From positions 248,001 through 312,000 of the forward strand of contig CM035357.1 of NCBI GenBank assembly GCA_020137815.1: DNA of 64,000 bases, read 5' to 3'. Below, piece by piece: positions 9,881 through 60,846 of this stretch; within the stretch, counting starts at the first letter, position 1, and every line of letters starts with the position of its first letter. Made by a program: the position numbers and the translations under genes. Under the pieces are notes generated by a model. That model ran no database searches and had not been told where the DNA came from. It was given only the letters and a program-made list of their open reading frames with translations. Source of the DNA: Hormiphora californensis. Taxonomy: Eukaryota; Animalia; Ctenophora.

Positions 9881-10069
9881 CCTATTATAGCGGTATGAAC
9901 ATAACGGGTGGTATGTACACTGCAGCCAATACTACTGCCCTCCCCCTGCCACCCAACCTTCCATCCCCACCTCCCCCACCCAGCCTCCCATCCCACAATA
10001 CTATCTAAACAACCTCCTCTAACCCTATTATAGCGGTATGAACATAACGGGTGGTATGTACACTGCAGC
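9881..10069 (+). repeat. Duplicated acceptor plus start-codon segment of the opsin
   Basis: cctattatagcggtATGaacataacgggtggtatgtacactgcagc occurs at 9881-9926 and 10024-10069. Confidence 0.85.
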
Positions 10070-13000
10070 TGTCCCATCAAATAGCACAGAGATCGATGTT
10101 ATGGGTATCGAACTGAGAGTATCCTTATCTCTTATCATGGCCTGTGTGTGCACTGGCAGTGTCTTCGGTGAGTATACATTGTAATATTATTGATTATTGT
10201 ACATTAATTATATTGGTACATATTACGAATTAAGAGAGGTAAAAGAATTGAGGGAGTTCGGGCAGTGAAATAATATACACTATCACTAGTAATTAGTTGA
10301 CTGTCTGAAAAGAGAGAGAGTCTCTCACTAGTAATTAGTTGACTGTCTGAAAAGAGTCTCTCACACAGAGTTTCCTATAGTACACACACCTGCTGACCAT
10401 GACGTACTGTAGTGTACTATAGTGACAGATCAGTTCTATTATACCCATTACAGTTTCCCCGGAAACTCTCCCGGAAATAATAAAGGGAGGTCTCACAATG
10501 AAAACTTGAGTAAAGAGTACACTGTATACATAGTAGGACTGTCAAATGTTATGTGTTATACATGGTTGTATTATTTGTTGTAGTGTTACTATCGTCCACA
10601 CTCCACTATACTGCTACTATTATTATATTGTAGAGTGTAGGAATGTAGTGTTACTTTGTCATAGTCTTGTGAAACTCTGGACCTCTCTCTTTCCTCTATC
10701 ATTCCCTTCTTTTGTCTATCCTTCTCTCTCTCCCTTTCTCTCTCTATCTTTTAATAATGGCGAATTAATTCTCCGGCTCAAAAGTAGTGAAGATTGACCT
10801 TCCGTGTTTGGGTGTTTTTTCCAATGAAAGATTTCACCATTCCACTTGACAACATTTATTTGATCAAAAGTTTTGATTCAAAACTTATTAGATCATGATT
10901 AGCGCTGAAGTTATCGATATTTTAAAGAAATTTACTAAATCATACTCGGTTATTAGATTATTGTACCCAGTTCTACACAAACTAAATCCCTGTATAATTA
11001 TAGCTCTATAATTGGTCCCCATTTCTTGTTCCGTCTAATTTCATATGTCTTTTTTTAAATCTTTGTTCTGAGCTGTTAATCGGTTTCCTACTACACAATT
11101 AACTATTCGTAGGAACCGACCGAAACAAGTAAACAACCAATCAGAGCTCGTTATTTAGGTCACGTGACTGGTTATCAGCCAATCAGCGACCAGTATTTCC
11201 TGATTCGGTCGGTTCCTGACATTTAACTATTCGTATTGCGCCAGTCGAAACTGCAAATTACAAAAGAGAAGAAAATGGAGGCTAAAATATTGTCCGTGTG
11301 TGTTTGTGTGTTTAGTGAAGTTTCAGTCAATAATGTTAGTGGTTGAGTGGATATATATGCAATGTTAGTGGTTGAGTGGATATATATGCAATGTTAGTGG
11401 TATGCAATGCTAGTGGTGATAATAATGGGCATTATTTCACTTAATTCAGCGATGCTGATCAAACATAAAACCATTATATTGATTTGCTAGTTATCTGAAA
11501 ATCTGAGGCCTACTTAAAACTTTTAACCAGCCACCTCGATCAGATGCGAAGTACTATTTAACAATATTTTACAATTAAAAAGTATTTAAGATCGTAACTA
11601 GCAATAAGTTAAGTAGGCCTCAGATTCTTAGATTCTCAGATAACTAGTAAATCACTAACGGTTTTATGTACGAACATGATGAACTACACCAGCTTGTGTT
11701 ATCTGCTCCTACTCCTTGGTGTGATGGTGATGGGCCTGATCACTGTGATTATATGTGACCTGCTCTTGGGATTAATTAGTTTCTCACACAAGATTAGGTT
11801 TAATCTTGTGTGAAATCTTGTATTCACACATACTAGCCAAGAAGAACGGGGGCCCCAGAAGAACATACACGATTAACATCTCCCAACATACAAGATGTGT
11901 TGATGTGTACGAGATTAAATGCCGGCATAATTGAGGGGGGCATCCGGCATATAAATTGTTTTCTTGAGATTTTCATTTCTTCCAGCTACTTTCACTGAGT
12001 GTTGTGGTCGACAGTGAAATACCAACCATAAACACTTGTTAGAGCAGGGAAACCCCAAACAATTACAGCAATAATTATGTCTTGAAAACATGTAAAACAT
12101 CCAGACCACCAGCGGTAATTAACCACCCCCTGCCTTGTTCGACCCTCTCCAACAACATCACAACTACCCCCCTCCTTCCCAGGTAACATGTTGGTATTTA
12201 TACCTTCCCCCCTTCCCAGGTATTTATATGTTCGACCATCTCTCTCCAATACCCCTCTGTTTCAGGTAACATGCTGGTGTTTATATCACTAGTGAAGGAA
12301 CGACCACTGCCAAACCCTGCCGTCGAGATGATCTTCAGACACCTCTCCCTGGCTAACTTGGTGTTGGCAGGAATAGGAGAACCACTCGTGGTGGTATCTC
12401 TTGCAGCAGGTACTTGTCTGTTTGTTTGTTTGTCTGTTTGTGTGTCTGTTTGTTTGTTTGGTGGTGTCTCTAGCAGCAGGTATTATACTTGTCTGTGTGT
12501 GTTTGTTTGTTTGGTTGTATGTTTGTTTGTTTGTTTGTTTGTCTGTTTGTTTGTTTGTTTGTTTGTTTGTTTGTTTGTTTGTTTGTTTGTTTGTTTGTTT
12601 GTTTGTTCGTTTGTTTGTTTGTTTGTTTATTTGTTTGTGTGTGGTCTCTCTTGCAGCAGGTATACTTGTTTGTTTGTTTGTTTGTCTGTTTGTGTGTTTG
12701 TCTGTTCGTTTGTTTGTTTGTTTGTTTGTTTGTTTGTTTGGTGGTCTCTCTTGCAGCAGGTATTATACTTGTCTGTGTGTGTTTGTTTGTTTGGTTGTAT
12801 GTTTGTTTGTTTGTTTGTTTGTTTGTTTGTCTGTTTGTTTGTTTGTTTGTTTGTTTGTTTGTTTGTTTGTTTGTTTGTTTGTTTGTTTGTTTGTTTGTTT
12901 GTTTGTTTGTTTGTTTGTTCGTTTGTTTGTTTGTTTGTTTGTTTGTTTGTTTGTGTGTGGTCTCTCTTGCAGCAGGTATACTTGTTTGTTTGTTTGTTTG

Positions 13001-19000: not shown

Positions 19001-22000
19001 TGTAAAATAATTTCTCTGTGAGGTCAAACTAATGCACCATCCCTGTATATATTACTCTAAACGGCCCTTGTCCGTCAATATACCACCTTTACGGTAAAAG
19101 GAAACTACTAGTATTCACACAGGTGGGCCCCTGAGTATGTGATACTACATGTCCTGGGGGTAGTATCCCATCTAATGGGTTTTATAATGGGACCATGGTT
19201 TTATTCAACCCTCCCGTATTATATTTGATAACAATCGAGGAGTGAGAATCTTAGAATCTAGAGTACGGTATGCTTCAATCAGATTAGACAATTTGAATTT
19301 TGTAGACCCACTACTCACTAGATCACTATAGCATTGACCAATACCATGTGATCTTTCTCTTTAACAATATTCAATAAATATTGTTCATGAATAATATCTA
19401 AAATATATCTAATAACTAATCAACATGAAGCAATGAATAGTTAAACATGATTCTAGTTCCTGAACTGGTTCTCTATCCAATCAACATTCTCATATAACTA
19501 CTGGGTTAGAACTGCTGGATTAGTTTGGTTTCTGAGAAACGATGTACTTTAAATTAATTTCTCAACTATGTGTGACAGATGCATGATGGGGGTATGATGG
19601 TGCTCAGAGTTTCTAGGAATTTGAGCACCAGATTCAAGGATATATGTTTGAGGCGGTTGACCGAAAGGAGACAAATATTCAGAGGTCCTGGGGCTTTTAA
19701 AGAACATTAAAATGGTAAATAAAGAGGCTTTCACGGGAGGGAGGGAGGGATGGGGGAAGCTGTCTTCCCCTGCTACATCCATCTGTACCTGTCCACACCT
19801 TTCAGACGTTCATATTCCCAAACCAAATGTTGAGTCACTTTCACCGCACCCCTACCTAATAGTATATTACACTTGGTATAGTCAGGTTTCAATATAACAG
19901 TGTGTTTCTTGCAGGATTCAATACAGTGTGTGTTTCTCATCACACAGGTATGTACTATTTACCAATGTGTATATTTATTGCAGGTAGCAGTGCTGTTGTC
20001 AGGTATCTACTTCCTGGCATTCTTTTTCGGGATCGCTCCACTGGTTGGCTGGTGTGAATACGGACCTGAGGGTAAGTGACACTATCTAATATTATGTGGG
20101 AACAGGGGTTCACCAATAGGAGATCAAATAGAAGATCCAATAGGAGATCATATGGCTTCTCTTTGGTCTCCTAGTGGATGGCTCCGAGCCATCACCACTC
20201 ATCTGATTAATTGAAAATATATGTGATATGTGTGATATGATAAACTTTGATTGAAAAGTTGAGTCGAGAAAATGGTAGGGTGGTTCCTTGCACAGCGAGA
20301 CGCTACTACTGTAATACTGCAATTTATTACAAATCTCAGTGGTGTTCTCTAAAAGTGTTCTCTATCAGCCTCTTTATGAATAAATCAATTTAACCCAGCC
20401 ATTATATTACAAAGATTTATAAAGAACTAGCGCACCCATTGGGTGCGCCTCAAGTAAGGGCTTTTTGATAACCCACCCGGCTTCGCCGGGTGGTTCTTTT
20501 CACCCCTTTTAACGTAAATAACACGGTTGCCATGGCAACTGAATTGGTAACTATGGGGACTGGCATGTTAAAAGTCATTCGAAAATATTGACAAACTTTC
20601 ACTGGAAGTTCCAAAAGTGTGAGTAACAGCTTTACAGCTTTGGTCACATAAAGTGTTTTATGAAGGAGCAGTCTGTCGCTTAGATACCGCTTAACGAACG
20701 ACTTCGACTTCGACGCGACATCTCCAAATTATAATATAGATAGTCTTGCCAGACAGATGGTATAAGGGTTGAACGATTTTTGCAAGAAGGGTATCTCTCT
20801 CACTCTCTCTTTCACTCTCTCACTCTATCTCTCTATCTCTCTCACTCTCTCTCTCTCTCTCTCTCTCTCACTCTAACTATCTTTCTCTCTCCCTCTAACT
20901 ATCTACCTCACTCCCTCTCTCTCTCCCTCTCTCCCTCTAACTATCTACCTCTATTGAAACAGCAGTAGTCATTATAATGTAGTCTCCTCGAGAGTATGAT
21001 GACGCACAGCTCTCTTCATCTAGTTTCCCCCTCGTCTGACTGAGCCCCCTGGTCACCTCTCTATCTTGGGGGGGGGGGGGGGAGAGATATCGCAACAGTG
21101 ATCCTCGTGCTTGAGCCTGAAAACCAATTAACGATTTGGCGGGAAGTCTTTGTTTAGGAGTACGAATTTAATTTAAAACACAGGGATATCCCTCTAGACC
21201 CCATTTTTCTCTAAATGAACTATTCTCTTTAGTGGTGGCAGCTTCCAAAATCCGTGTTTGTGTACGTCACATTAATTAGGTGAAATAATTCCAATTATTC
21301 TCCTTACCAACAACCTATGTCTCAGTCCAAGAGTGTTTGTACGTAACGCGCGATGTTTCAGAGCTAGTCTTTATCGCGCGCCTAGAATATTAGCCACATC
21401 CTACTCGACCTCCAAAGTTTGATGATTTCATTCAACTTCCCCTTCGGTGGCGGGTTCACTGAAATGTTCATGGGAAAGGCGATAAGTCGATTAGATCATA
21501 GCACAGTCGGACCCCGATTTACCGGGATGCTTATGTATTTTCCCGGTAAATCGGGGTGTCCAGTATACCGGGGGCCGTTAAATCGGGGTCAGACTACGTC
21601 ATATTATTATCCAACATTCCACTGCAGTACTGGCAAGCGTTAAGGTATAAGGTCATAGAAGGACCTCTTGTCTTTCAGCAGTTTCAGGCCATTCATCGTA
21701 TCAAAAAAGTTAAATTTCCCCTAATAAGTTAGTATGCTGCGAAGTTGCCCCTAAACACCAACCGAATCTATATTTCTAACCCCTGACCTCGTACAATAAT
21801 ACAAATACTCCATGGAGGCTATTTAACTCCCTATCTCCCCCAGGTTATGGTGTCAGTAACTCTCTCCCTCTCTCCCCCAGGTTATGGTGTTAGTAACTCC
21901 CTCCCTATCTCCCCCAGGTTATGGTGTCAGTAACTCTCTCATGTGGAACAATCTGAACGACAACAATGCTAGTTATATAATCTGTGCAATGATCGTGGGA

Positions 22001-23578
22001 TACTTCTTCCCTCTTATCATCATCATGTTTTGCTACAGAGCAATATATAGACTTGTACAGGTATGAGCAATCTATAGACTTGTACAGGTATGAGAGGGTA
22101 ATATATAGACTTGTACAGGTAAGAGAGGGACTATTAGGAATTATTAATGATCACATTTATAAATGAAAGTCCCACTACTTCAAAATTCCACCCTATTTTA
22201 TATGTGTCATTCTACCCTAACTGTCCCAATTTGAGATTTTGAGCTGTTCGATATGTTTCCTGACCTTTGTTTGTTTCAGGCGCAGCTAAACACATCGGTG
22301 GTTAAAATGACAGTTAGTGCGAATGTAACTAGTCTGTCTACAAACCGGAATCACATAATGCTGGTGAGTAATGACAAACTATCTTGTAATGCTGGTGAGT
22401 AATGCATGACATCTTTTTGTTATGCTGGTGAGTGTTGGTGGTGGTGGTGGTGGTGGGTTATAGCGTGTCAAACTCTGCAGCGCAGAACGACATAGCTACC
22501 TCGAGTTATAGCGTCTGTCATCGTTATTGTGGTATTAGATGGCATTATTTACTCAGTACTCAGCTGTTGTCAATGCTGTTGAGTATGCTGCAAAGGTGCT
22601 ATAGGTATCCCCCTCCTGCTGATGTATGGAACTGAAGGGCGGGGTTTCTTTCTAAATTAAAAAGTGGGAAAATAGTTTAAAAGATTAAACCTTATAAAGT
22701 GTGCCAGTCGGTCGTGGTAACAGAATCAAGCTGTGTGAAGATTATATAGATTCTATACAGAATCTAGTTCCACTATGTACTACCTACCCCTCCCCCCCCC
22801 CCCTCGGATCAAGGGGGATTACATCATGATCTTCGACCAAGAAGGTTTTATACTTGCTCCTATGCATTCCCCCAGGTCCAACCGTTATATAACTCCAAGA
22901 GATTCCTCTAGTACTGCACACCCCCTGTCGGAGCATTGGCCTGACAGACACCGCCTTTTCCATAATTATGGACATGCTATATACCAGCTGCTCAAAAGAA
23001 AAAGACCCCCCTTTTCTCTAACACCACTCCCCCCAATATAGGTGCAAGAGAGACAGTTAGCATCTACCATAACATTTGTCATCCTGTCCTTCTTCTTTGC
23101 ATGGACGCCCTACGTGTTCGTTAACATTATCAACATGTTTAGCACTCTCGTTCTGAAATACAGGATTCTAGCTACGGTAAGTGGACGCCCTACGTGTTTG
23201 TTAACATTATCAACATGTTCAGCACACTCGTTCTAAAATACAGAATACTGGCAACGGTAAGTTATATTGCTAATCAAACAATTACCGGGCGGATAATAAC
23301 TTCCGACTGTATAACATCAGGACATGATCAAACAGATCTTTAAAACGCCCTTTTCACAGAATCTAACAATAACTCTCAACCCCCCAGATTCCCCCTAACA
23401 GTGCCCAACAACTCCTAAACCACCCCCTCCCCTTTTCCAGATTCCAGCCCTCTTTGCCAAATCCTCGACCCTCTGGTGGATAATCGTGTATTGTTTGATG
23501 GATGTCAGGATTAAAAAGGCGTGCAGGAAGACTTGTCTTAGATTTAAACGGTCGTTCCGTGTTTGGTACTTCTCTTAG
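10038..23578 (+). CDS. Opsin, ctenophore opsin-1-like, 335 aa. Exons 10038-10167, 12266-12409, 15111-15256, 19984-20071, 21918-22060, 22280-22363, 23042-23176, 23441-23578
   Basis: All junctions are GT-AG and in phase (1008 nt). 7-TM motifs: N-glycosylation sites NIT/NST, TM1 GN, TM3 WGESMRFFEAF..FEQY, EL2 PLVGWCEYGPEG, TM5 YFFPLIIIMFCY, TM6 AWTPY, TM7 IPALFAKSS with the retinal-binding Lys (bovine K296). Confidence 0.93.
11111..11217. mobile_element. 107-bp terminal-inverted-repeat MITE (Pleurobrachia-type dispersed repeat)
   Basis: aggaaccgaccgaa...ttcggtcggttcct, with ttaactattcgt on both sides. It translates as EPTETSKQPIRARYLGHVTGYQPISDQYFLIRSVP, which I recall as a repeat-derived peptide common in P. 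bachei gene models. Confidence 0.7.
12410..13156 (+). repeat. (GTTT)n microsatellite containing four extra copies of the opsin exon-2 end plus donor
   Basis: gtggtNtctctNgcagcag|gtat recurs at about 12460, 12641, 12740 and 12957 inside the GTTT tract. Confidence 0.9.
13884..14365 (-). mobile_element. 5'-truncated RTE-clade non-LTR retrotransposon, 3' end
   Basis: LLYGAETWTLT...RMALGINWWDKVRNEDV and RRLRLAGHIQRH...RSRGRPQKT are typical RTE ORF C-terminal motifs. One frameshift near 14160. (GTCA)n tail. Inserted in a cagagacacaga tract. Confidence 0.85.
15495..18130. mobile_element. Penelope-like retroelement: two 5'-truncated copies joined head-to-head in opsin intron 3
   Basis: Mirror ORFs 15700-16821 (-) and 16903-17925 (+) encode an RT C-terminus (YGRYVDD, PFLD) and a GIY-YIG endonuclease (GVVYKIEC..YVGET..RFKEH). 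Inversion centre at about 16822-16842. The right arm has a deletion of about 40 bp near 16900. ttatatcttgttag occurs on both flanks. Confidence 0.92.
18032..18072 (+). ncRNA. Minimal hammerhead-ribozyme-like core in the Penelope 3' region (mirror copy on - at about 15553-15590)
   Basis: CTGATGA (18040-18046), stem gccgt-cga-acggc, then GAAAC and GTC. Penelope-like elements are known to carry minimal hammerheads. Stem I pairing is weak. Confidence 0.55.
20427..20740 (-). mobile_element. Non-autonomous Helitron
   Basis: On - it begins TCTATATTAT and ends with the hairpin gcgcaccca-a-tgggtgcgc overlapping CTAG. It sits between A and T with no TSD. Confidence 0.7.
21823..22435 (+). repeat. Triplicated splice sites of opsin exons 5 and 6
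   Basis: Acceptor ccccag|gttatggtgtYagtaactc x3 (21823-21940). Donor tatagacttgtacag|gta x3 (22040-22125). Donor atgctg|gtgagt x3 (22355-22435). Confidence 0.9.
23102..23261 (+). repeat. 80-bp tandem duplication of the opsin exon-7 3' end plus donor
   Basis: Copies at 23102-23181 and 23182-23261 both encode WTPYVFVNIINMFSTLVLKYRILAT followed by gtaag. Confidence 0.95.
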
Positions 23579-43100: not shown

Positions 43101-46100
43101 CCCAACAAAAGTTTGTTTTGTGGGCTCAACTTTGGGTTGACGATCCTTCTGGTGCACCGTGGGGAAGTAGTTACGATCGAATGGTCATGTAAAATGGCCA
43201 TGTGCTGACCATTTTCTCTGTTTAAAGAGTAACCTTACTCAGACTTGATTAGAACTAAAGACCATATTATTGCAAACAGTACATACCTTTCCTTTGACCC
43301 ACAATCCACTGCACATGAAGGCACAAATCAGCACCCAGGCCAACACAATCACGATGAACGGAAAGAACTTCTCAAAATCAGTGTACCAAGCAAGATCTCC
43401 GATACTCAGGGGAGAGTCAGAGAGGTGAAGAAACTCGTAGTACCAGTGAAACAGAGCACCTGAGGTCTGAAACAGGAAACACGTGTTTAGGGGGTTTGGT
43501 TCCAGTACAGGAAACAGGGGGAGGGAGTTTAGAATTGTGTGGATCATACCGTTAGAGTGCTCTGTGATGGTAGATCAAGTTTAGGGGGGTTTGTTCTACG
43601 GGACTAGATTTGATTTTCACATGGTAAAGAAGATCAAAATTACTGTAGTTTGTTAACTGGTTCTACATCAGATCGCTGCACCGGATCAGAGTAGGTTGAT
43701 TAACATTAGACCTACCTCACAACACACAAGATTTTTCCCAGTCCAACCCTTGGATGCGCAGGTTCCAGCTCCAGGGTAGGATCCATTGGGTGCTATAGCT
43801 GTCCAGATACCCTTAATACTGTAGTACAGGGTCCACGCAGTAGTTGTGTTAAAGTAGATGTTGTAGATGATCGTCACAAACAGGATAGCTGTAAGAGGGT
43901 GGGTGTGTGAGTCAGTGGAGATAGAGATATGGGTGGATGTGTGAGTCAGTGGAGATAGAGATATGGGTGGATGTGTGAGTCAGATAGAGATAGAGATAGG
44001 GTAGCTGAGGTATAATCGAGTATCGGAGTTTTGTTAAAATTATAAACCGTGGGATAAAGATATATGGAAAATATGGATCAGAATCCCGAACTTGATTTTA
44101 AAACCATGTTCATATAATAAAGCTCACTAAAGTTTCAATCTGAGCTAATACACATGATAAAGCTCACTAAAGTTTCAATCTGAGCTAATACACTAAGTAC
44201 TGATGTTGAGCTAATACACTCACATTTCCCTTTTCTCCTTACTGTATAACGGTAATACGACTACAAGCAGCACTGTAATACACTCACATTTGCCGAGACC
44301 CGAGAAGAATTTGTGAATTCTCTCCATGGTAACGATGACGCCCCTCCTGAATACTTGACCAATCAACATCTCCATAATTAGCGTGGGAAGGGAGAACATC
44401 ATGTAGAAAATAAAGTAGGGAATCAGAAATACACCTGAAAATAAAGTAGGGAATCAGAAATACACCTGAAAATAAAGTAGGGAATCAGAAATACACCTGA
44501 AAATAAAGTAGGGAATCAGAAATACACCTGAAAATAAAGTAGGGAATCAGAAACACACCTGAAAATAAAGTAGGGAATCAGAAATACACCTGAAAATAAA
44601 GTAGGGAATCAGAAATACACCTGAAAATAAAGTAGGGAATCAGAAACACACCTGAAAATAAAGTAGGGAATCAGAAATACACCTGAAAATAAAGTAGGGA
44701 ATCAGAAATACACCTGAAAATAAAGTAGGGAATCAGAAACACACCTGAAAATAAAGTAGGGAATCAGAAATACACCTGAAAATAAAGTAGGGAATCAGAA
44801 ATACACCTGAAAATAAAGTAGGGAATCAGAAACACACCTGAAAATAAAGTAGGGAATCAGAAATACACCTGAAAATAAAGTAGGGAATCAGAAATACACC
44901 TGAAAATAAAGTAGGGAATCAGAAACACACCTGAAAATAAAGTAGGGAATCAGAAACACACCTGAAAATAAAGTAGGGAATCAGAAATACACCTGAAAAT
45001 AAAGTAGGGAATCAGAAATACACCTGAAAATAAAGTAGGGAATCAGAAACACACCTGAAAATAAAGTAGGGAATCAGAAATACACCTGAAAATAAAGTAG
45101 GGAATCAGAAACACACCTGAAAATAAAGTAGGGAATCAGAAACACACCTGAAAATAAAGTAGGGAATCAGAAATACACCTGAAAATAAAGTAGGGAATCA
45201 GAAATACACCTGAAAATAAAGTAGGGAATCAGAAATACACCTGAAAATAAAGTAGGGAATCAGAAATACACCTGAAAATAAAGTAGGGAATCAGAAACAC
45301 ACCTGAAAATAAAGTAGGGAATCAGAAATACACCTGAAAATAAAGTAGGGAATCAGAAATACACCTGAAAATAAAGTAGGGAATCAGAAACACACCTGAA
45401 AATAAAGTAGGGAATCAGAAACACACCTGAAAATAAAGTAGGGAATCAGAAACACACCTGAAAATAAAGTAGGGAATCAGAAATACACCTGAAAATAAAG
45501 TAGGGAATCAGAAACACACCTGAAAATAAAGTAGGGAATCAGAAATACACCTGAAAATAAAGTAGGGAATCAGAAATACACCTGAAAATAAAGTAGGGAA
45601 TCAGAAACACACCTGAAAATAAAGTAGGGAATCAGAAACACACCTGAAAATAAAGTAGGGAATCAGAAATACACCTGAAAATAAAGTAGGGAATCAGAAA
45701 CACACCTGAAAATAAAGTAGGGAATCAGAAACACACCTGAAAATAAAGTAGGGAATCAGAAACACACCTGAAAATAAAGTAGGGAATCAGAAACACACCT
45801 GAAAATAAAGTAGGGAATCAGAAATACACCTGAAAATAAAGTAGGGAATCAGAAATACACCTGAAAATAAAGTAGGGAATCAGAAACACACCTGAAAATA
45901 AAGTAGGGAATCAGAAACACACCTGAAAATAAAGTAGGGAATCAGAAATACACCTGAAAATAAAGTAGGGAATCAGAAACACACCTGAAAATAAAGTAGG
46001 GAATCAGAAATACACCTGAAAATAAAGTAGGGAATCAGAAACACACCTGAAAATAAAGTAGGGAATCAGAAATACACCTGAAAATAAAGTAGGGAATCAG

Positions 46101-49100
46101 AAATACACCTGAAAATAAAGTAGGGAATCAGAAATACACCTGAAAATAAAGTAGGGAATCAGAAACACACCTGAAAATAAAGTAGGGAATCAGAAATACA
46201 CCTGAAAATAAAGTAGGGAATCAGAAATACACCTGAAAATAAAGTAGGGAATCAGAAATACACCTGAAAATAAAGTAGGGAATCAGAAATACACCTGAAA
46301 ATAAAGTAGGGAATCAGAAACACACCTGAAAATAAAGTAGGGAATCAGAAACACACCTGAAAATAAAGTAGGGAATCAGAAATACACCTGAAAATAAAGT
46401 AGGGAATCAGAAACACACCTGAAAATAAAGTAGGGAATCAGAAATACACCTGAAAATAAAGTAGGGAATCAGAAATACACCTGAAAATAAAGTAGGGAAT
46501 CAGAAACACACCTGAAAATAAAGTAGGGAATCAGAAATACACCTGAAAATAAAGTAGGGAATCAGAAATACACCTGAAAATAAAGTAGGGAATCAGAAAT
46601 ACACCTGAAAATAAAGTAGGGAATCAGAAATACACCTGAAAATAAAGTAGGGAATCAGAAACTACACCTGAAAATAAAGTAGGGAATCAGAAATACACCT
46701 GAAAATAAAGTAGGGAATCAGAAATACACCTGAAAATAAAGTAGGGAATCAGAAATACACCTGAAAATAAAGTAGGGAATCAGAAACACACCTGAAAATA
46801 AAGTAGGGAATCAGAAATACACCTGAAAATAAAGTAGGGAATCAGAAATACACCTGAAAATAAAGTAGGGAATCAGAAATACACCTGAAAATAAAGTAGG
46901 GAATCAGAAATACACCTGAAAATAAAGTAGGGAATCAGAAATACACCTGAAAATAAAGTAGGGAATCAGAAATACACCTGAAAATAAAGTAGGGAATCAG
47001 AAATACACCTGAAAATAAAGTAGGGAATCAGAAATACACCTGAAAATAAAGTAGGGAATCAGAAATACACCTGAAAATAAAGTAGGGAATCAGAAATACA
47101 CCTGAAAATAAAGTAGGGAATCAGAAATACACCTGAAAATAAAGTAGGGAATCAGAAATACACCTGAAAATAAAGTAGGGAATCAGAAATACACCTGAAA
47201 ATAAAGTAGGGAATCAGAAATACACCTGAAAATAAAGTAGGGAATCAGAAATACACCTGAAAATAAAGTAGGGAATCAGAAATACACCTGAAAATAAAGT
47301 AGGGAATCAGAAATACACCTGAAAATAAAGTAGGGAATCAGAAATACACCTGAAAATAAAGTAGGGAATCAGAAACACACCTGAAAATAAAGTAGGGAAT
47401 CAGAAATACACCTGAAAATAAAGTAGGGAATCAGAAACACACCTGAAAATAAAGTAGGGAATCAGAAACACACCTGAAAATAAAGTAGGGAATCAGAAAT
47501 ACACCTGAAAATAAAGTAGGGAATCAGAAACACACCTGAAAATAAAGTAGGGAATCAGAAATACACCTGAAAATAAAGTAGGGAATCAGAAACACACCTG
47601 AAAATAAAGTAGGGAATCAGAAATACACCTGAAAATAAAGTAGGGAATCAGAAATACACCTGAAAATAAGTAGGGAATCAGAAATACACCTGAAAATAAA
47701 GTAGGGAATCAGAAACACACCTGAAAATAAAGTAGGGAATCAGAAACACACCTGAAAATAAAGTAGGGAATCAGAAATACAAACCTGAAAATAAAGTAGG
47801 GAATCAGAAACTACACCTGAAAATAAAGTAGGGAATCAGAAATACACCTGAAAATAAAGTAGGGAATCAGAAACACACCTGAAAATAAAGTAGGGAATCA
47901 GAAATACACCTGAAAATAAAGTAGGGAATCAGAAATACACCTGAAAATAAAGTAGGGAATCAGAAATACACCTGAAAATAAAGTAGGGAATCAGAAACAC
48001 ACCTGAAAATAAAGTAGGGAATCAGAAACACACCTGAAAATAAAGTAGGGAATCAGAAATACACCTGAAAATAAAGTAGGGAATCAGAAACACACCTGAA
48101 AATAAAGTAGGGAATCAGAAATACACCTGAAAATAAAGTAGGGAATCAGAAACACACCTGAAAATAAAGTAGGGAATCAGAAACACACCTGAAAATAAAG
48201 TAGGGAATCAGAAATACACCTGAAAATAAAGTAGGGAATCAGAAACACACCTGAAAATAAAGTAGGGAATCAGAAATACACCTGAAAATAAAGTAGGGAA
48301 TCAGAAACACACCTGAAAATAAAGTAGGGAATCAGAAATACACCTGAAAATAAAGTAGGGAATCAGAAATACACCTGAAAATAAAGTAGGGAATCAGAAA
48401 TACACCTGAAAATAAAGTAGGGAATCAGAAACACACCTGAAAATAAAGTAGGGAATCAGAAACACACCTGAAAATAAAGTAGGGAATCAGAAATACACCT
48501 GAAAATAAAGTAGGGAATCAGAAATACACCTGAAAATAAAGTAGGGAATCAGAAATACACCTGAAAATAAAGTAGGGAATCAGAAACACACCTGAAAATA
48601 AAGTAGGGAATCAGAAACACACCTGAAAATAAAGTAGGGAATCAGAAATACACCTGAAAATAAAGTAGGGAATCAGAAATACACCTGAAAATAAAGTAGG
48701 GAATCAGAAACACACCTGAAAATAAAGTAGGGAATCAGAAACACACCTGAGAATAAAGTAGGGAATCAGAAATACACCTGAAAATAAAGTAGGGAATCAG
48801 AAATACACCTGAAAATAAAATAGGGAATCATAAATACACCTGAAAATAAAGTAGGGAATCAGAAATACGCCTGAAAATATAAAGTAGGGAATCAGAAATA
48901 CACCTGAAAATAAAGTAGGGAATCAGAAATACACCTGAAAATAAAGTAGGGAATCAGAAATACACCTGAAAATAAAGTAGGGAATCAGAAATACACCTGA
49001 AAATAAAGTAGGGAATCAGAAATACACCTGAAAATAAAGTAGGGAATCAGAAACACACCTGAAAATAAAGTAGGGAATCAGAAACACACCTGAAAATAAA

Positions 49101-51019
49101 GTAGGGAATCAGAAATACACCTGAAAATAAAGTAGGGAATCAGAAACACACGTGAAAATAAAGTAGGGAATCAGAAATACACCTGAAAATAAAGTAGGGA
49201 ATCAGAAACACACCTGAAAATAACGGAATCAGAAATACACCTGAAAATAAAGTAGGGAATCAGAAACACACCTGAAAATAAAGTAGGGAATCAGAAACAC
49301 ACCTGAAAATAAAGTAGGGAATCAGAAATACACCTGAAAATAACGTAGGGAATCAGAAATACACCTGAAAATAAAGTAGGGAATCAGAAACACACCTGAA
49401 AATAAAGTAGGGAATCAGAAATACACCTGAAAATAAAGTAGGGAATCAGAAACACACCTGAAAATAAAGTAGGGAATCAGAAATACACCTGAAAACAAAG
49501 TAGGGAATCAGAAATACACCTGAAAATAAAGTAGGGAATCAGAAATACACCTGAAAATAAAGTAGGGAATCAGAAACACACCTGAAAATAAAGTAGGGAA
49601 TCAGAAACACACCTGAAAATAAAGTAGGGAATCAGAAATACACCTGAAAATAAAATAGGGAATCAGAAACACACCTGAAAATAAAGTAGGGAATCAGAAA
49701 TACACCTGAAAATAAAGTAGGGAATCAGAAACACACGTGAAAATAAAGTAGGGAATCAGAAACACACCTGAAAATAAAGTAGGGAATCAGAAACACACCT
49801 GAAAATAAAGTAGGGAATCAGAAATACACCTGAAAATAACGGAATCGGTAAATTATCTTATCGTTATCTAAGTTCATGACGAATTAAGGAACCTAAAATT
49901 AATCACTACTGCAACCATTTAGTAGCTCCTGAAGGGAATCATTCCCTGGGAATGCCGTTAAATCCTTACCTCCGCCATAATTCTTCATTGCTGCCACAAA
50001 ACTGCCCATGTTTCCTATACCCCAGATAGCCGCCATGGACGCCAGGATGAACTCAATTCGGTTCGTCCACATGGGCCTCTCCTGTGTAGGAATTGTATTG
50101 GTTACCATGGTTACCACGAAGGATTTGAAGTTGCAGAATTGGGAACTTTCGGTTGCTATGGGGACTGGGGAGGTCTATCTGTGTAGCTACATTTATGCTA
50201 ACTACATTTCTAGTAACCCTGATAACGTACATCATTGAGAGCATTCTCTTTCTCATCATCAACGAGGTCATTACGGCGAAATGGTTTCTGGGCGAGCATG
50301 TCATAGTCAAATCCAGCAATTCCCTCCGCGTTAGCGGCTGTACCCGTCACCGGCAAACCTGGGAGGAAAATATTATGTTTGAATTCAGTTCAGTGAGGCA
50401 CTGTCAGACCTGACAAAATGGCAAATATTATGTTTGAATTCAGTTCAGTGAGTTGTCTAGATCAAACTGTTGCTATGGTAACTATATCTGACTACGTACC
50501 TGCTGCACTGAGCGGCACCTCAACCTCTACGTTACCAATGGTAACTATGGTAACCAATGGTTGCTATGGTAACTAACTACGTACCTGCTGCACTGAATGG
50601 CACTTCAACCTCTACGTTGCCAATGGTAACTATGGTAACCAATGGTTGCTATGGTAACTATATCTGACTACGTGTACCTGCTGCACTGAGTGGCACTTCA
50701 ACCTCTACGTTGCCAATGGTAACTATGGTAACCAATGGTTGCTATGGTAACTAACTACGTACCTGCTGCACTGAATGGCACTTCAACCTCTACGTTGCCA
50801 ATGGTAACTATGGTAACCAATGGTTGCTATGGTAACTATATCTGACAACGTACCTGCTGCACTTAGTGGCACTTCAACCTCTACGTTGCCAATGGTTACC
50901 CACGGACTCGGTTTGGGTTTGGCTGCTTTCTTTGCTTCTGACGCCTCGAACTTGGCGTACATGGAGCCTTGGGTGGCATTACTAACCGCCTTATCAACGG
51001 ACGTGCCCCAAATCCACAT
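25179..51019 (-). CDS. Tandem double-domain SLC6/NSS transporter-like protein, about 1,542 aa, 37-38 coding exons
   Basis: Exons in transcript order: 51019-50854, 50358-50231, 50081-49970, 44434-44288, 43888-43716, 43466-43287, 41444-41310, 41126-40973, 40820-40735, 40542-40453, 40308-40155, 39774-39615, 39431-39303, 39019-38938, 38746-38455, 38281-38194, 38009-37951, 37727-37614, 37147-37072, 36203-36081, 35902-35855 (tentative), 35475-35372, 34087-33926, 33714-33616, 33462-33349 and/or 32941-32813, 32636-32544, 32291-32129, 28484-28358, 28157-28050, 27811-27716, 27514-27397, 27098-26970, 26540-26431, 26227-26141, 25983-25846, 25652-25466, 25276-25179. All are GT-AG and phase-consistent. SLC6 motifs occur twice: GIGNM..YGGGVFLIPY..EMLIGQ vs GVGIITRF..LEIDLGQ; WMNAATQ vs WVEAG..FSSYN; AWIYSIYRF vs TWVYSMYRL. 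Confidence 0.85.
28756..32170 (-). repeat. 60-bp tandem array (about 57 units) of an SLC6 exon 3' end plus donor
   Basis: The unit on - reads ACC GAC CGA GTT GAG TTT AGA ATA AAG GAT GTC ATG AAC AG|gttcgt (TDRVEFRIKDVMNR), matching the end of exon 32291-32129. Confidence 0.95.
34110..35198. repeat. 11-bp satellite (YATTGTGCAAT)n, about 99 units, intronic
   Basis: Near-palindromic unit. It produces the spurious LCNHCAIIVQS ORFs. Confidence 0.95.
35468..35815 (-). repeat. About 60-bp tandem repeat carrying copies of an SLC6 acceptor plus exon start
   Basis: ttaYag|ccgctac recurs about 7 times, up to the functional acceptor of exon 35475-35372. Confidence 0.8.
35940..36045 (-). mobile_element. 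Solo Penelope-like 3' tail with a hammerhead-like core
   Basis: On -: CTGATGA a gatgt-tgtt-acatc GAAAC. The agggacaaa..tttatt..gtttcg..catcag layout matches the PLE tail at 15510-15585. Confidence 0.45.
37251..37687 (-). repeat. 119-bp tandem repeat (4 units) of an SLC6 exon end plus donor, with X-box-like spacers
   Basis: Units start at 37251, 37370, 37489 and 37608. Each encodes YPTIQVIGYLMQYFQIMIGQNKVM followed by gtgagt. Confidence 0.92.
37740..37865. repeat. 21-bp tandem repeat (aaaatcaatatgatactaatt) x6
   Basis: Read directly. It lies next to an acceptor. Confidence 0.9.
39851..40154 (-). repeat. 33-bp tandem repeat of the donor ca|gtgagttt plus an X-box-like gttaccatggtaat
   Basis: About 9-10 units, starting at the donor of exon 40308-40155. 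Confidence 0.9.
41521..43161. mobile_element. Third foldback transposon, Chapaev/CMC-like, in an SLC6 intron
   Basis: Palindrome with CACGG...CCGTG termini and 4-bp TSD GGGA (41517-41520, 43162-43165). Internal sequence is homologous to the element at 2827-4171. Confidence 0.88.
44406..49846 (-). repeat. 31-bp tandem array (about 175 units) of an SLC6 acceptor plus exon start
   Basis: Unit on -: GTGTRTTTCTGATTCCCTACTTTATTTTCAG, i.e. exon start (G)VFLIPYFIF plus AG. The 31-bp period was checked at 44435 and 44466. Confidence 0.96.
50469..50898 (-). repeat. Five copies (about 85-93 bp period) of the SLC6 first-coding-exon end plus donor
   Basis: Each encodes VTIGNVEVEVP(L/F)SAA followed by gtac. 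Spacers contain gttgctatggtaac. Confidence 0.9.
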
Positions 51020-51234
51020 GATCACACGGGGACCTCACACTCAGAGAGATATTATCACTCAGAGAGATATTATCACACTCAGAGATATCACTCAGAGAGT
51101 AGTGGGAATTCGGGTGGTGGATACTAGTTGACCTAAAATAATTAGACAACTTGTAGGGGGTAACTTTAATAACTGCAGACGGGATTTTGGCAACAAAACA
51201 ATTCATTGTCACCAAGACAACCAATCAAAAGGAG

Positions 51235-53008: not shown

Positions 53009-53092
<84 letters not shown>

Positions 53093-56000
53093 GCGCTATG
53101 ATAGACTCGAGCGAGTACTCGCGCCTCTCGCGGTCACGAGATCTTAGACTCCGAGCGCTATAGAGCTCGCGACTAGGTATATAGTAGTTCGATAGGGACT
53201 AGGGAGAGAAGGCGAAAGACATTGAACGGAAAACGCCAGGAAATTCTAGTTGGAATTCCCAGGGGCCTGTAGCGTATGCAAATGGTTCTAAGTGAAATTT
53301 CCCTATTCCCCTAAAACTACCTGCTCCCTACCTCCAAATGCAGGTTTGTTGGTGGGTTTCCTCTGTGTGTTGGTATTGCCTTCATCAAGTACAAACAGAC
53401 AGACAGCATTATTGCCGGAGTTCTCAGTGGGATCGTCTTCTTCTGCACCATAGTCGCTATTCAGGTAACTACTGCTACTAGACTGCTAGAGAAGCTATTC
53501 AGGTAACTAGATAGAAGCAGCTGCTGAAGTGATTAAATGAGGTGCATTATCAGCACATATCGCCGGTATAACTTCCTATTAGACAATTTTGACCGGTGAT
53601 CTAAGTTTTCACAGTGCACCGCTTCCGCTGGTTACAGTGCACTGTGAAAACTTAGACCACTGCAAAACACTAGTAATTATAAAGTAAAATACCGTTGCAG
53701 TGGTATGTGAAAAATTAGACACTTTCTAGTCACACACACAGTATAAACATTACGCCACTACTGCACACGCCCTAACCCTTATCTTTTCTTCCCCTCTGCA
53801 ACTATAGGTCACGTGATCGTCACGTGATGGCACCACCCCAATGAGCGTCCTGCATCTGCTTTCCCTCTCTGCCTTCGATTCTCTCTTTCCCTATCTCTCT
53901 CTCTCTCTCTCTCTCTCACACTCATTCTTTTTCTCTTTCTCTCTCTCTCACTCAATCTTTATCTCGTTCACTCAGTTTGTTTCCAAAATCATCTAATAAA
54001 ATTAGATGACTGCTTTTACATGCTCTATTACACAACAATAATGTTAAAGATTCTTTCACTTTTAGGCCTCGCAGGCTCGGCCCAAAAGTACAACTACAGA
54101 GCTCGCAGGCTCGCTCAGTAGTTACACTTAGCGTGCCTCGCAGGCTCGGCAGCTAAGTAAAAGGATCTACCTCGACCTCTCGGTCTCGGTTCATTATTGT
54201 TGTATTTAGAACACTCGGCCTTCGGCCTCGTGCACTAAATAGTAATAGACCATTTTAACCAGTCATCTAATCATATAATATGCTGCTATTCTGAATTATT
54301 GATACTTTTTGTTAAATAAAATTGTTCGTAACATTCTAGTGTGTCTGTGAAGCAGTTAACCGAAAACAGCCCTTAGAAGCTTTTATCTTTTTGGGAAAAA
54401 TCAGCGTATCATCGATTCGTAAAACCTTTTTGGGGAAAAATATATGCACAAGCCCAGTCAGCTCCCACTGTTAGTCCGATGCTCTGACACGTCCTCCAGT
54501 AGTTGTACCACGTCTCCAACAACATCCCCCCTCACTCCGCAGTACTGGCCATGGAGTGCCTGGTTGAACGACTCTAAAACCGGTCGATTATCCGCCTCTA
54601 AAGGACTCATCTTTAACTTTATCCGGCTAATTCTCCTCACCCCCATCGTGGTGGTGTACGGGTTGTGGTGCCGGAAAACCATTGAGAAGTTTTGGTCGCA
54701 GTGGGCAGCTGTTGAGAGCAAGACGGGGCTTGAGGACCAGGAGGGTGGGTCTACTACAGGATCATTCGATGACGTGGATGAGGCAGACTTTGTTAACAAG
54801 TGAGAGAAGAGCACAACTGCTGAAATATAGCACTGTTCGGCCTTTAAAACATGTATGAGAGAAACAGAGCACTGTTTGGGACTTGTGTGTGTACATGAAG
54901 CAGCTTTGTCAAAGAGGGTAGATAATTGTTTATGGAGCATATTTTAATGGGGTGTAAAATGATGTCTTTTTTGAAGCATTATTTCTGTTCATTCCAAATT
55001 AAAAGATTTCGTTTGAATGAATTTTGCTGTTATAAGTTGCCATATTGCTATAATAGACCCTAATTTTGGTATCATGTGATATCTGTGGGGATCTCTAGTA
55101 GAACACGAACAGAGCTACAGAATGTTACTAGTCTGCTGAGACTTCATCAGAGAGAATGCTCGACCACGGCCATGATGTATGTACAATGTACATGTCACAC
55201 CGTTCTATTAGAGTTCTACTAGAGTTTTCCCTAGCGTCCCTGTGTTCATGTTATAAATTGCTCTGCTGATACGTATAATTCTAGATCATGTATGCCAATT
55301 GCTAATATCCACATGTTCTCTCTGTTTCAGTGGTACCCCTGGTCAGCCATGTACATGCTAATGTATAAAATATATTGTATAATGAGCTAATATCTCTCTG
55401 TTTTCTGTTTCAGTGGTACCCCTGGTCAGCCTGGATTATAGGAAACTCAACCAACGCAACCATCTTCACAACCTTCAGGCTCATCTTCCAGATCCCCCTC
55501 GTCACATTCTACTCCATCCTACTACGGAGGAAAATAAGAAAGTTTTGTGTTGTGGTTGGGTCAGGGTTGGAGCGGGTACCTGCTAATGAGAATAATAAGA
55601 GACAAGGTAGTCCTGATAAGAGGAAGGAGGAACAGGAAGATGATGATGAGGAGTTCGTGGATGAATTTCAGAATGAGGAGAATCTCTATGAAAACTATGA
55701 TCGGAGAGTTCCAAACTAAATATGTTGCAGCGAATGAATGCGATGATGAATGAAGTGGAGAGAGAATGAATTTTGGGAGTTTTTGCTCTAAAAACCAATC
55801 GACTCTATGTTTGCGAAATTTAATTTTCAAATAATATTCATTTTTTATGTAATGTGACTTTATGGTGAATTGAATACTCAATAATTGTCAAAGCCATGTG
55901 TGTTCGTTCGTCGATACTTTACAGCATTATATGATTACAGTTTACTAATAGTAACCATAGTAACCGATTCCTTTCAGTACTGGCCCTGGGCAGCCTGGCT

Positions 56001-57450: not shown

Positions 57451-57820
57451 CAAGGTAGCAAGCTTGTTGAGTAACACATCGTGTAGCAAGTAATAACAAT
57501 AGCAAGCTGGGACCTTAGAACATAAACAAGTGGTTTTAAGCTGGGATTTAGGACACAACCACTTAAGTGGGGATTTAGAAAATATGTAATGGTTTACAGC
57601 CGGACTGTAGCATGATTTGATGATAGCATGGGTGTATATTTTTTAATTTCTTTTGAAACTTTTACTTCCACTCCTCACGACCACACTTTCTTTCTTACTC
57701 CTTCATTAACTTATTTTCTGATTTATAAAACGATTTTGTTTCAATACATACCCGAACAAAACCCCAAACTCTATGAAACCCCTCAGCTCCATAATATATA
57801 TTTTAGCTAGACAAGTTACC

Positions 57821-57904
57821 ATGCCTCCTCCCCCCGGACCCCCACCTCCTCCTCCACCTCCACCTCCAGGTGGACCCCCTTGTCCATGCTGCATCATCCT
57901 ATAA
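57821..57904 (+). CDS. 27-aa polyproline CaaX microprotein MPPPPGPPPPPPPPPPGGPPCPCCIIL
   Basis: Hand-translated; below the ORF-track cutoff. Acceptor ttttag lies 14 nt upstream. The C-terminus matches its neighbours. Confidence 0.72.
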   Translation: MPPPPGPPPPPPPPPPGGPPCPCCIIL

Positions 57905-58237
57905 TTACCCCTACATAAGAATAATTGCATTATGTATTCATAATGCGGTGTTTCCCTGCCCCAGATGGGTGTAAAATTGATGACTAAGCTTCAAAACTGG
58001 ATTTTCCGATGAATTTTGCATTCTAAGAGCAATTTTTGGCTGATATGATGTTAGTTGCTATGGTTTCTTTTGAAACTTTTACTTCCACTCCTCACGACCA
58101 CACTTTCTTTCTTACTCCTTCATTAACTTATTTTCTGATTTATAAAACGATTTTGTTTCAATACATACCCGAACAAAACCCCAAACTCTATGAAACCCCT
58201 CAGCTCCATAATATATATTTTAGCTAGACAAGTTACC

Positions 58238-58321
58238 ATGCCTCCTCCCCCCGGACCCCCACCTCCTCCTCCACCTCCACCTCCAGGTGGACCCCCTTGT
58301 CCATGCTGCATCATCCTATAA
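58238..58321 (+). CDS. Identical second copy of the 27-aa CaaX microprotein
   Basis: Part of a direct duplication of about 270 bp (57647-57915 and 58064-58332, offset 417). Confidence 0.7.
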   Translation: MPPPPGPPPPPPPPPPGGPPCPCCIIL

Positions 58322-58723
58322 TTACCCCTACATGGATATGAAATCTCAATGATATGGACTCAACATGGACTTGATATGGACTCAATGATATGGACTCAAT
58401 GATATGATCGGAGATCGCCAGAAACTACGTGGCTGAACCCTTAACCCTGATTGTTATAAGGAAGACTCAAAGCATGACCAAAGCCCAAAATATTCTTTTT
58501 ACTCTTTCTTATCTTTTTAACCACAACTCTTACAATTAATCTTATCTTCCTTTCTTATCTAATTATTTTTAGTGTAATTTTGATTCAAATAAAAAAGTTT
58601 TAATAAATCAACTGTTTTACTCAACTATTTTACTCCATTCCGTCACCTGTTATTACAATATTAACCCCTAATGCCTTTTAAACCTTACCCACAGCTAACC
58701 AGTAACCAGAGTTTTTAGCGATC

Positions 58724-58948
58724 ATGGAACATCATCATCCTGAAGGTGGACCTGGTGGCCCCTACGGACCTAGACCTGGTGGTCCTTATGGTCCTGATCC
58801 CTATGGTGCCCCTCCGCCTGGCCCGTATCATGCTCCTCCTCCTCCCCCTCATCATTATAGTCCTTTTGGCCCTCCACCCCCACCACCTCCCCCACCACCC
58901 CACCACCATGGACCTCCTGGACCGTGCTGCTGTTGCCTTATCCTATAA
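58724..58948 (+). CDS. 74-aa Pro/Gly/His-rich protein ending CCCCLIL (CaaX)
   Basis: ORF track. Acceptor ttttag lies 5 nt before the ATG. Confidence 0.8.
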   Translation: MEHHHPEGGPGGPYGPRPGGPYGPDPYGAPPPGPYHAPPPPPHHYSPFGPPPPPPPPPPHHHGPPGPCCCCLIL

Positions 58949-59559
58949 TATGGAGGATGTAGAGCCATTGACAGACGCTCCTGTGCAAGTTGAAAGAGTG
59001 TCAGACTACTGCTCAACAGCAGGGAGGCAGGTCTTTATCGATTCATCGATTTATCTGGTTGGTGAATGGGACCATCAACTGTTTTATAATCCGAGCCAAG
59101 ACCCATGCCAAGATGCTTGGCTCATCAAACCCCTATTGAAAACAAACAAACAGTCTCTGTAAATATGTGTATAATGTGTATGTAATTTATGTGTATGTAA
59201 TTTATTTCTTCTTATTAATTTTCATATAATTATTCAGTAATCATTTCAAATTATATAACTTAGAAAAGCATTTTTCCGATTTTGTTTTGGTCAAAATAAA
59301 TTTTCAAACAAGCTACATTTTCACACAATGCATATTTTCATTGCACATTTTTACAACCAACCGAAATAACTCCAACAAACAAGAACAAAACGACCACGAC
59401 ATTATGTTATAGTGGGTATCCGGTATTACTACATAGATGCTATACCAGTTCAATATTGAATCGATTTGCTGCCACTTGAAACCCTAATGCCATCCACACA
59501 CTTTCAGTACCCAACCCCAGACGTATTCAAGAATCAATTGCTATTTAGCCCACTAAAAC

Positions 59560-60846
59560 CCCACCCCACCCATCCACTCAACTACCCTCTCAATAGCTAT
59601 ATAAAATGCCTCCACCCCACACCATCCCACTACCCCACCCCACCTACACCAACCCCTCCACCCCACCCCAAACCACCCCACCCACTCAACTATCCACCCT
59701 CTCAATAGCTATATAAAAGATGCCTCCCACCCCACCCCACCTCCACCCTACCCGACCACCACTGACCCCGCCCCACCCCCACTCAACAACACACCCTCTC
59801 AATACCTATATAAAATGCCTCCCACCCCACCCACTCAACAACCCACCTCCACCCACCCCTCCACCCAAAGCCCGCCCCTCCACCCCACCCCACCCCTCCA
59901 CCCCCTCCACCCCACCCCATCACACTCAACTATATCCACCCTCTCAATAGCTATATAAAATGCCTCCACCCCACCCCACCCCACCCACCCACTCAACTAC
60001 CCACCCTCTCAATAGCTATATAAAATGCCTCCACCCCACCCCACCCCACCACCCCAAACCCACCCCACCAACCCAACCCCACCACCCCACCCCACCCCAC
60101 CCCACCCCACCCCACCCCACCCCACCCCACCCACCCCACCCTCACTCAACTACCCTCTCAATAGGTATATAAGATGCCTCCACCCCCACCCCACCCCCAC
60201 CCTCACTCAACTATATCCACCCTCTCAATAGCTATATAAGATGCCTCCACCCCACCCCACCCCAAACCACCCCACCCACTCAACTATCCACCCTCTCAAT
60301 AGCTATATAAAAGATGCCTCCCACCCCACCCCACCTCCACCCTACCCACCCACCACTGACCCCGCCCCACCCCCACTCAACAACACACCCTCTCAATAGC
60401 TATATAAAATGCCTCCCACCCCACCCACTCAACAACCCACCTCCACCCACCCCTCCACCCAAAGCCCGCCCCTCCACCCCACCCCACCCCTCCACCCCAC
60501 CCACCCCACCCCATCACACTCAACTATATCCACCCTCTCAATAGCTATATAAAATGCCTCCACCCCACCCCACCCCACCCACCCACTCAACTACCCACCC
60601 TCTCAATAGCTATATAAAATGCCTCCACCCCACCCCCACCCCACCCCACCCTCACTCAACTATATCCACCCTCTCAATAGCTATATAAGATGCCTCCACC
60701 CCACCCACTCCACCCCACCCCACCCTCACTCAACTATATCCACCCTCTCAATAGCTATATAAGATGCCTCCACCCCACCCACTCCACCCCACCCCACCCT
60801 CAATCAACTATATACACCTTCTCAATAGCTATATAAAATGCCTCCC
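59560..60846 (+). repeat. C-rich tandem array repeating the acceptor plus ATG of the next microprotein gene
   Basis: ctctcaatag|ctatataaaATGcctcc recurs about 14-15 times between (CCCCA)n spacers. Only the last copy continues into the CaaX ORF. Confidence 0.88.

Follow-up and report, generated by a model that had tools for sequence, protein, structure and literature searches.

Minisatellites whose first unit lies across an exon-intron boundary have been described in intron 7 of the human F7 gene, as a 37-bp variable number tandem repeat, and in 6-16, CBS, lamin B2 and PDGF (PMC1557585). The exon end and its donor are repeated into the intron, the copy number is polymorphic and, in F7, the most upstream donor is used; an exon-end duplication in this human gene is harmless when the first donor is the one chosen (PMC1557585). 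The cited passages of that paper treat such repeats as oddities of single genes with identical pseudo-sites, and the word "synonymous" is absent from the paper. Here we analyse a window of 64,000 nucleotides (nt) of the ctenophore Hormiphora californensis (assembly GCA_020137815.1, contig CM035357.1, positions 248,001 to 312,000; coordinates below are those of the window), in which exon ends and splice sites of an opsin gene and an SLC6 transporter gene are repeated into the flanking introns. Unlike the F7-type repeats, these occur at about a fifth of the boundaries in two genes, on the donor as well as the acceptor side; a unit holds as many as 75 coding nt, and the variants match exon alleles. 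We consider it probable that the copies are short local exon-end duplications carried by some haplotypes, likely intronic, and that their silent differences are likely alleles from other haplotypes of a very polymorphic species.

Copies were sought as ungapped matches anchored on a splice site in each flanking intron, using a scoring that is blind to codons. At a score of at least 13 they were found at 18 of the 88 internal coding exon boundaries of the two genes (17 of 88 at a score of at least 16), and the opsin acceptor before the ATG raises the number of boundaries with copies to 19. None of 528 control pairings of a boundary with another intron scored. An earlier note on this DNA had claimed copies at about 20 boundaries in several genes, and both parts of that claim hold, with further copies in a third gene (53495, 55330) and in an array of an acceptor plus ATG at 59587-60846. 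The coding part of these further copies is too short for synonymous scoring; the repeats at 56238-56330 were also left out of scoring, being probably intronic throughout in view of a GTGAGT donor at about 56219. The repeat unit spans the exon-intron boundary and reiterates the splice site inside the intron, on both donor and acceptor sides. Some units form head-to-tail arrays, with unit lengths of 31, 50, 53, 85-93 and 119 nt, and many other events consist of one extra copy, some of them set apart by unrelated sequence. The copies contain one splice site and part of an exon, never a whole exon with both sites, and for that reason we rejected mutually exclusive duplicated exons as an account of them. 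Short exon-edge repeats at about one boundary in five in these two genes are confirmed as a real feature of the DNA.

The differences between copy and exon are almost entirely silent. The 15 small events hold 29 changed codons, 28 synonymous and 1 replacement (95% confidence interval of the synonymous share 0.82-1.0), in agreement with a previous hand count of about 30 against about 3. The sole replacement, CTA/CTC>TTC (L>F) in SLC6 exon 1, is present in 2 copies, and both homologues have M at this position. Among random changes the synonymous share would be 0.23-0.28, which supports the quarter that the earlier note had given for neutral DNA as far as single changes go; the neutral expectation is higher than this because the exon itself also changes silently, and reaches 0.36-0.47 in a toy simulation without exchange. 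The observed share still rejects that expectation, and against a fairer null of 0.40 the ratio of 28:1 has P ~1e-10. Softer alignment scoring gives 31 synonymous to 7 replacement changes, with the six added replacements at or past the outer edge of the unit; the softest setting (mismatch -0.5) extended into unrelated sequence and was discarded. Most of the codon changes named previously could be located, namely those at the opsin exon 2 acceptor and donor, at exon 5 and at exon 7 (eight of eight), and in SLC6 those at 25473, 26974/26989 and 32548, three sites in exon 18 and GTT>GTC at 41433. Two entries stood in part: four of the five changes claimed for a copy at about 50500 are silent and inside the alignment, with the fifth only at its edge, and near 41475 GTT>GTC was found with CTG>CTC lying past the aligned end.

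Within the copied units 27 of 110 synonymous sites are variable, compared to 1 of 372 replacement sites and 5 of 132 copied intron bases (synonymous against intronic, P=2e-6), in counts made without the two large arrays, the array at the exon 22 acceptor, which has 7 coding nt, and a borderline match at the exon 29 donor. Since silent sites vary more than the copied intron bases beside them, the silent differences exceed what in-place accumulation in the units would give. The host genes and the copies are as follows.

10038-10167, 12266-12409, 15111-15256, 19984-20071, 21918-22060, 22280-22363, 23042-23176 and 23441-23578, plus strand: opsin coding exons
25182..51019, minus strand: double-domain SLC6 transporter gene, 38 exons with GT-AG introns; the model ends just before the stop codon
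9881..9926, plus strand: acceptor before the opsin ATG with 36 nt, identical copy
12180..12202, plus strand: opsin exon 2 acceptor with 20 coding nt; two silent changes, and the pyrimidine tract differs
12459..12978, plus strand: opsin exon 2 end and donor, four copies inside a TTTG microsatellite; GTA>GTC/GTG, CTT>CTA
21827..21903, plus strand: opsin exon 5 acceptor and start, two 37-nt copies; GTC>GTT, TCT>TCC
22065..22125, plus strand: opsin exon 5 end and donor, two copies; ATA>ATC; a contig of sequencing run X1 spans 21923-22418 with no difference
22387..22404, plus strand: opsin exon 6 end and donor, copy
23182..23261, plus strand: opsin exon 7 end and donor, 80-nt tandem copy; 8 of 8 changes silent
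25422..25457, minus strand: SLC6 exon 37 end and donor, 36-nt copy; GGG>GGA
26375..26426, minus strand: SLC6 exon 34 end and donor, 52-nt copy, identical
26803..26848, minus strand: SLC6 exon 33 end and donor, copy; GGG>GGT, AAT>AAC
28756..32128, minus strand: SLC6 exon 28 end and donor, array of 68 copies of a 50-nt unit
32405..32541, minus strand: SLC6 exon 27 end and donor, copies; TTG>TTA
35476..35830, minus strand: SLC6 exon 22 acceptor with 7 coding nt, six 53-nt units
37249..37613, minus strand: SLC6 exon 18 end (73 nt), donor and 46 intron nt, three 119-nt copies; of the variable sites 3 are silent and 1 intronic
39151..39169, minus strand: SLC6 exon 14 acceptor with 8 coding nt, copy
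41471..41489, minus strand: SLC6 exon 7 acceptor with 17 coding nt, copy; GTT>GTC
44437..49839, minus strand: SLC6 exon 4 acceptor and start, array of about 172-175 copies of a 31-nt unit
50469..50853, minus strand: SLC6 exon 1 end (43 nt) and donor, four copies; 4 silent variable sites, 1 L>F
53495..53509, plus strand: third gene, exon end and donor, copy
55320..55348, plus strand: third gene, acceptor and exon start (55413), copy
59587..60846, plus strand: likely acceptor, short leader and ATG CCT CC, about 14 units before a small Gly/His-rich gene

Evidence on where the silent letters come from is given by opsin exon 7, the one exon at which alleles were compared, through contigs assembled from seven sequencing runs, four of them from one sample that is possibly the window's own (run X1 is of sample S1 and run X5 of sample S2). 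Over 8.9 kb the read contigs show 730 differences from the window, 40 of which are listed. The differences listed for exon 7 and its copy number 29; the 23 from runs X1, X5 and X6, which are differences within the species, are all synonymous in the exon frame, and so are the 6 listed only in run X7. In S1 the five X1 contigs resolve into two haplotypes, which differ at 5 of the first 78 bases of exon 7 (about 18 silent sites). The second haplotype has a single exon 7 end, at first continuing into the intron that is found after the window's copy. At the 8 sites that distinguish exon from copy it has the copy letter at 3, the exon letter at 2, a third letter at 2 and is unreadable near the contig end at 1. 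It also carries an acceptor-side duplication of its own, with a joint at 23092>23040, and S2 has other exon 7 duplications with an acceptor joint at 23074>23012 and a donor joint at 23179>23109. The copy number of exon 7 is polymorphic, with one or two exon ends and differing duplications by haplotype. In S2, with letters assigned by contig depth, the copy in the 80-nt tandem has 6 differences from the window's copy, all of them silent, and exon 7 bears the copy-type G at 23170. The divergence of copy from exon is 8 in 75 nt, and that of allele from allele 5 in 78 and about 6 in 75. Copy letters recur at 5 of the 8 sites in other records of the species besides the S2 copy, only 4 of them at a probable working exon. 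The upstream pieces of two exon 7 contigs are listed with 0 differences to the window exon; at face value an intronic copy would there equal the working exon of another haplotype. As 31-letter words should not recur between contigs of one assembly, the zero is possibly a counting effect, and these pieces were not used. The earlier suggestion that the copies archive diverged alleles gains support at this exon, where a haplotype with a single copy has copy-type letters and the divergence of copy and exon resembles that of alleles; at opsin exon 7 the copies look like captured exon alleles.

The same contigs bear on whether the assembler stitched two haplotypes in tandem. The copies do resemble alleles and the species is very heterozygous, both of which an artefact of this kind would lead us to expect. 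Contigs from X1, however, are identical to the window across 21923-22418 and 23110-23593 at the depth of one haplotype, the second haplotype is a separate contig unlike both exon and copy, and a contig from S2, a second sample from a separate study, has the same 80-nt exon 7 junction. Because the X1 contigs match the window and the S2 contig spans the junction, the small opsin tandems are real DNA, and stitching, which the earlier note had named as a possible refutation, is not borne out for the copies of opsin exons 5-7. We regard it as the least probable of the explanations considered here.

The two large arrays, of 3.4 kb and 5.4 kb, with copy numbers as they stand in the assembly, separate shared from new variation. 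In the 31-nt acceptor array, with 172 copies, GTA and GTG units are interspersed (65 GTG). The 50-nt donor array (68 copies) has the recurrent silent variants AAG>AAA, AGA>AGG, ACC>ACA/ACG and CTA>CTG, with four silent codons at a single Thr position and several further silent pairs. Over both arrays the variants present in more than one unit comprise 7 synonymous and 1 replacement, the latter being CTG>CGG in 33 of the 68 units of the 50-nt array, 4 nt from the unit junction. Singletons are 2 synonymous and 9 replacement (Fisher P=0.005 against recurrent variants), and because of this excess of replacements the new changes within array copies look neutral, or are assembly errors, and the shared variants are silent. 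A ratio of 7 to 1 among recurrent variants could also arise if the copies are old and have been purged indirectly, with array contraction often promoting a copy to the exon and selection then removing its replacements. The lower variability of replacement sites than of intronic parts in the units (1/372 vs 5/132, P=0.006) is in line with this. Indirect purging alone, however, leaves the six-fold higher silent than intronic variation in the units unexplained, and it overlaps with the import of alleles as its reciprocal product. We judge it improbable as the main cause.

Whether the copies are themselves used can be assessed from the gene models. The opsin model (8 exons, plus strand, 10038-23578) has GT-AG introns and a frame open to the stop, and by using first donors and last acceptors it matches Pleurobrachia bachei opsin-1 at 312 of 314 aligned residues, which places the animal among the pleurobrachiid ctenophores; a single opsin exon gave a 98% match to the same protein, and the 7tm_1 profile matched 2 of 5 exons scanned, under the curated cut-off. 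The SLC6 model has a frame open over 1564 codons and about 1048 identities to Bolinopsis and Mnemiopsis proteins, in an alignment that runs the length of the model. In the opsin protein of P. bachei no exon end occurs twice, which fits the use of the first donor and last acceptor, and at a loose contig end of the distant run X7 (presumably RNA, about 80-86% alike) the exon 7 end runs into exon 8-like sequence without a repeat. Use of the nearest alternative splice site would cause a frameshift or stop in 17 of 18 coding events. The SLC6 exon 37 copy is the only event that keeps an open frame, and it would add 12 codons. From these models the copies are likely spliced out as intron. That they could function as alternative splice sites or as parts of exons, with coding selection acting on them directly, is suggested by the exon 37 copy and by some human junction minisatellites in which, in the cited passages, a second or third donor is used (PMC1557585). 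The broken frames, the single exon ends in P. bachei, the X7 contig without a repeat and the neutral array singletons all argue the other way, and we think a functional role of this kind very unlikely. The proposal that the copies stay under coding selection is unneeded given the neutral look of the singletons and the 17 broken frames, and neither direct selection on the copies nor any function is required.

Local direct repeats of the two genes are concentrated on splice sites. With low-complexity repeats dropped there are 46 clusters; 19 of them lie across a splice site, and not one is confined to exons. Random placement outside exons would give 5.1 spanning clusters, or 8.5 when long intron interiors are removed (37 clusters; P ~1e-4). 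Beyond these 19, eleven local repeats, from 15258 to 50452, lie 30 nt or less from a splice site that they do not cross, and 30 of the 46 clusters are on or near a boundary, against 10-17 expected. A position-based comparison shows weak enrichment (17/88 boundaries against 97/768 intron anchors), because a single 11-nt satellite and two microsatellites account for more than half of the intron hits; low-complexity repeats, this satellite among them, were dropped from the event-based test. The excess may reflect a commoner birth at exon edges or a longer survival as a recognisable copy.

A separate observation is that GGTAAC/GTTACC occurs 96 times compared to about 24 in shuffles (37050-40270, 50100-51680), mostly within a GTTACCATGGTAAC-like near-palindrome that is found in introns beside exons and inside several arrays. 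We take it to resemble an RFX X-box. It could be linked to where duplications start.

The genome of Hormiphora californensis has been described as having about 3.2% heterozygosity, high exonic heterozygosity for single nucleotide polymorphisms, many noncoding indels and 13% tandem repeats, and the cited passages of that paper make no mention of splice-site-anchored repeats (PMC8527503). In the hypervariable fungus Schizophyllum commune crossovers concentrate in exons, and conserved exons are the places in which very divergent homologues can recombine; the abstract of that study reports no exon-edge duplications, and the extension to ctenophores is by analogy (PMC4209137). High exonic heterozygosity and indel-rich introns in Hormiphora, together with the exon-focused fungal crossovers, fit the setting for the sequence of events that we propose. 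Local direct repeats are common in the window and concentrated on splice sites. They would arise when breaks are repaired or templates switched at short matches, and use of the first donor and last acceptor would make them tolerable. At opsin exon 7 the alleles differ at about 0.3 of silent sites with no replacement among the listed differences, and duplications are present on some haplotypes and absent from others. A donor-side copy adjoins the downstream intron and would match the position of the working exon end on a single-copy homologue. Ordinary meiotic pairing could then bring that exon into register with the copy, and crossing-over or conversion would load into the copy an allele already filtered by selection, or turn the copy into exon. 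Alternatively, some copies may have come from the other homologue at their birth. Slippage or unequal exchange would amplify units into arrays, in which new mutations would be neutral and imported alleles silent.

The plausibility of this scheme, and no more than that, is shown by the toy forward simulation (60 sites, 150 diploids, synonymous diversity piS of 0.19-0.27, a duplication starting at 20%, and 24-36 replicates per setting). From its value without exchange the synonymous share rose to 0.86-0.97 with recombination at 10-30 times mutation, and a smaller run was noisier (0.65-0.95 with recombination). The simulated replacements gather near the unit junction, where the CTG>CGG of the 50-nt array sits. 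Very young copies from another allele reached 0.96 without recombination, and this also suits a one-time capture, in which repair takes the copy from an allele of the other homologue and the copy is soon lost, with no later exchange. Further points in its favour are that in several copies the match ends just beyond the splice site or the pyrimidine tract differs, and that several independent duplications at one exon imply a fast turnover. The 80-nt junction that holds two copies 6 silent changes apart speaks against it, and the four silent Thr codons and other silent pairs of the 50-nt array would need repeated import. One-time capture seems to us unlikely as the whole account, and is the strongest competitor to the duplication of exon ends followed by exchange with other haplotypes.

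Several points weigh against that favoured explanation. In the simulation a share of at least 0.95 was reached only with young copies or high recombination, and crossovers beside an 80-nt insertion may be suppressed. The intron figure of 5/132 is biased low, as alignments end where introns diverge and the splice consensus is constrained, and the array singletons could be assembly errors. At exon 7 the copy letters A at 23226 and A at 23253 occur in 0 of 6 other records, and T at 23199 is seen only in the S2 copy and in the distant run X7. An A at 23158/23238 is common to exon and copy and missing from all 6 other records, which points to some copying within the haplotype as well. Exon 7 is a single exon, chosen as the most divergent and followed through contigs, not phased reads, and S2 shows at least four haplotypes in run X5, making chimeric contigs possible.

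Two other systems deserve comparison. In the Rogers model introns are reportedly gained by tandem duplication of a segment that contains AG|GT. The copies are alike in being short intragenic duplications that double a splice signal, and differ in that the duplicate falls within an existing intron and no new intron is made. Intron gain of this kind was rejected for our case, as the gene models match homologues with no new intron and, in 17 of 18 events, an alternative site would disrupt the frame. Concerted evolution by gene conversion exchanges sequence between neighbouring tandem duplicates. Here, by contrast, exchange appears to be with the allelic exon of a duplication-free haplotype, and it would add silent diversity to the copy, not erase it. 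A literature search over listings and abstract openings, in a collection with few subscription papers, found no description of exon-end copies that carry exon alleles or that occur densely in a genome. Junction-spanning minisatellites are already known; the density, haplotype-specific recurrence and allele sharing seen here are without a precedent that we found.

The host genes and the rest of the window have some features of their own. Two transporter domains are joined in one SLC6 chain of 1560 residues, an arrangement conserved in Bolinopsis and Mnemiopsis, and 35855-35866 may be a 12-nt micro-exon of this gene. SLC6 exon 25 (33349-33462, minus strand) is missing from both homologues and has 38% identity to exon 26 (32813-32941, minus strand; E 5e-6), and judging from their sequences the two are likely a duplicated exon pair, possibly used in a mutually exclusive manner. 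Opsin intron 3 contains a perfect 1230-nt inverted duplication at 15495-18130 with the same truncated frame in both arms, presumably the end of a Penelope-type reverse transcriptase with a GIY-YIG nuclease. Large hairpin-like elements, with arms of several hundred bases that are 92-100% complementary, lie at 2827-4171, 7476-8441 and 41521-43161. The third gene, which is unmodelled (53345-56340, plus strand), encodes a small membrane protein with three similar alternative last exons (54544, 55413, 55978). At 57022-63490 (plus strand) there is a cluster of small Pro/Gly-rich genes with Cys-rich tails such as CCIIL, CLIL and CTII, which we take to be CaaX-like, and one of these genes is exactly duplicated over at least 257 nt (57660 and 58077).

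A wider idea, which we hold as possible and on balance doubtful, is that in hyperpolymorphic animals the recombination of divergent homologues makes duplications at exon edges, the places at which homology stops, and passes working alleles through them in cycles. Introns would then be a genome-wide, constantly renewed store of exon-end alleles able to return to function, and a single genome would suffice to gauge fine-scale recombination against mutation, from the replacement/silent ratio of its copies. In ctenophore genomes, read mapping, gene prediction and the calling of single nucleotide polymorphisms will be misled by such copies. If the feature is general, non-coding copies can show a near-zero replacement/silent ratio without function, which undercuts a standard test for coding sequence. 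They would also be direct traces, open to counting, of the places and the manner in which very divergent homologues recombine, a question still debated for hypervariable species, and would provide abundant raw material for splice-site shifts. A ctenophore spliceosome would in that case be shown to choose reliably, from up to 170 identical sites, the first donor and the last acceptor.

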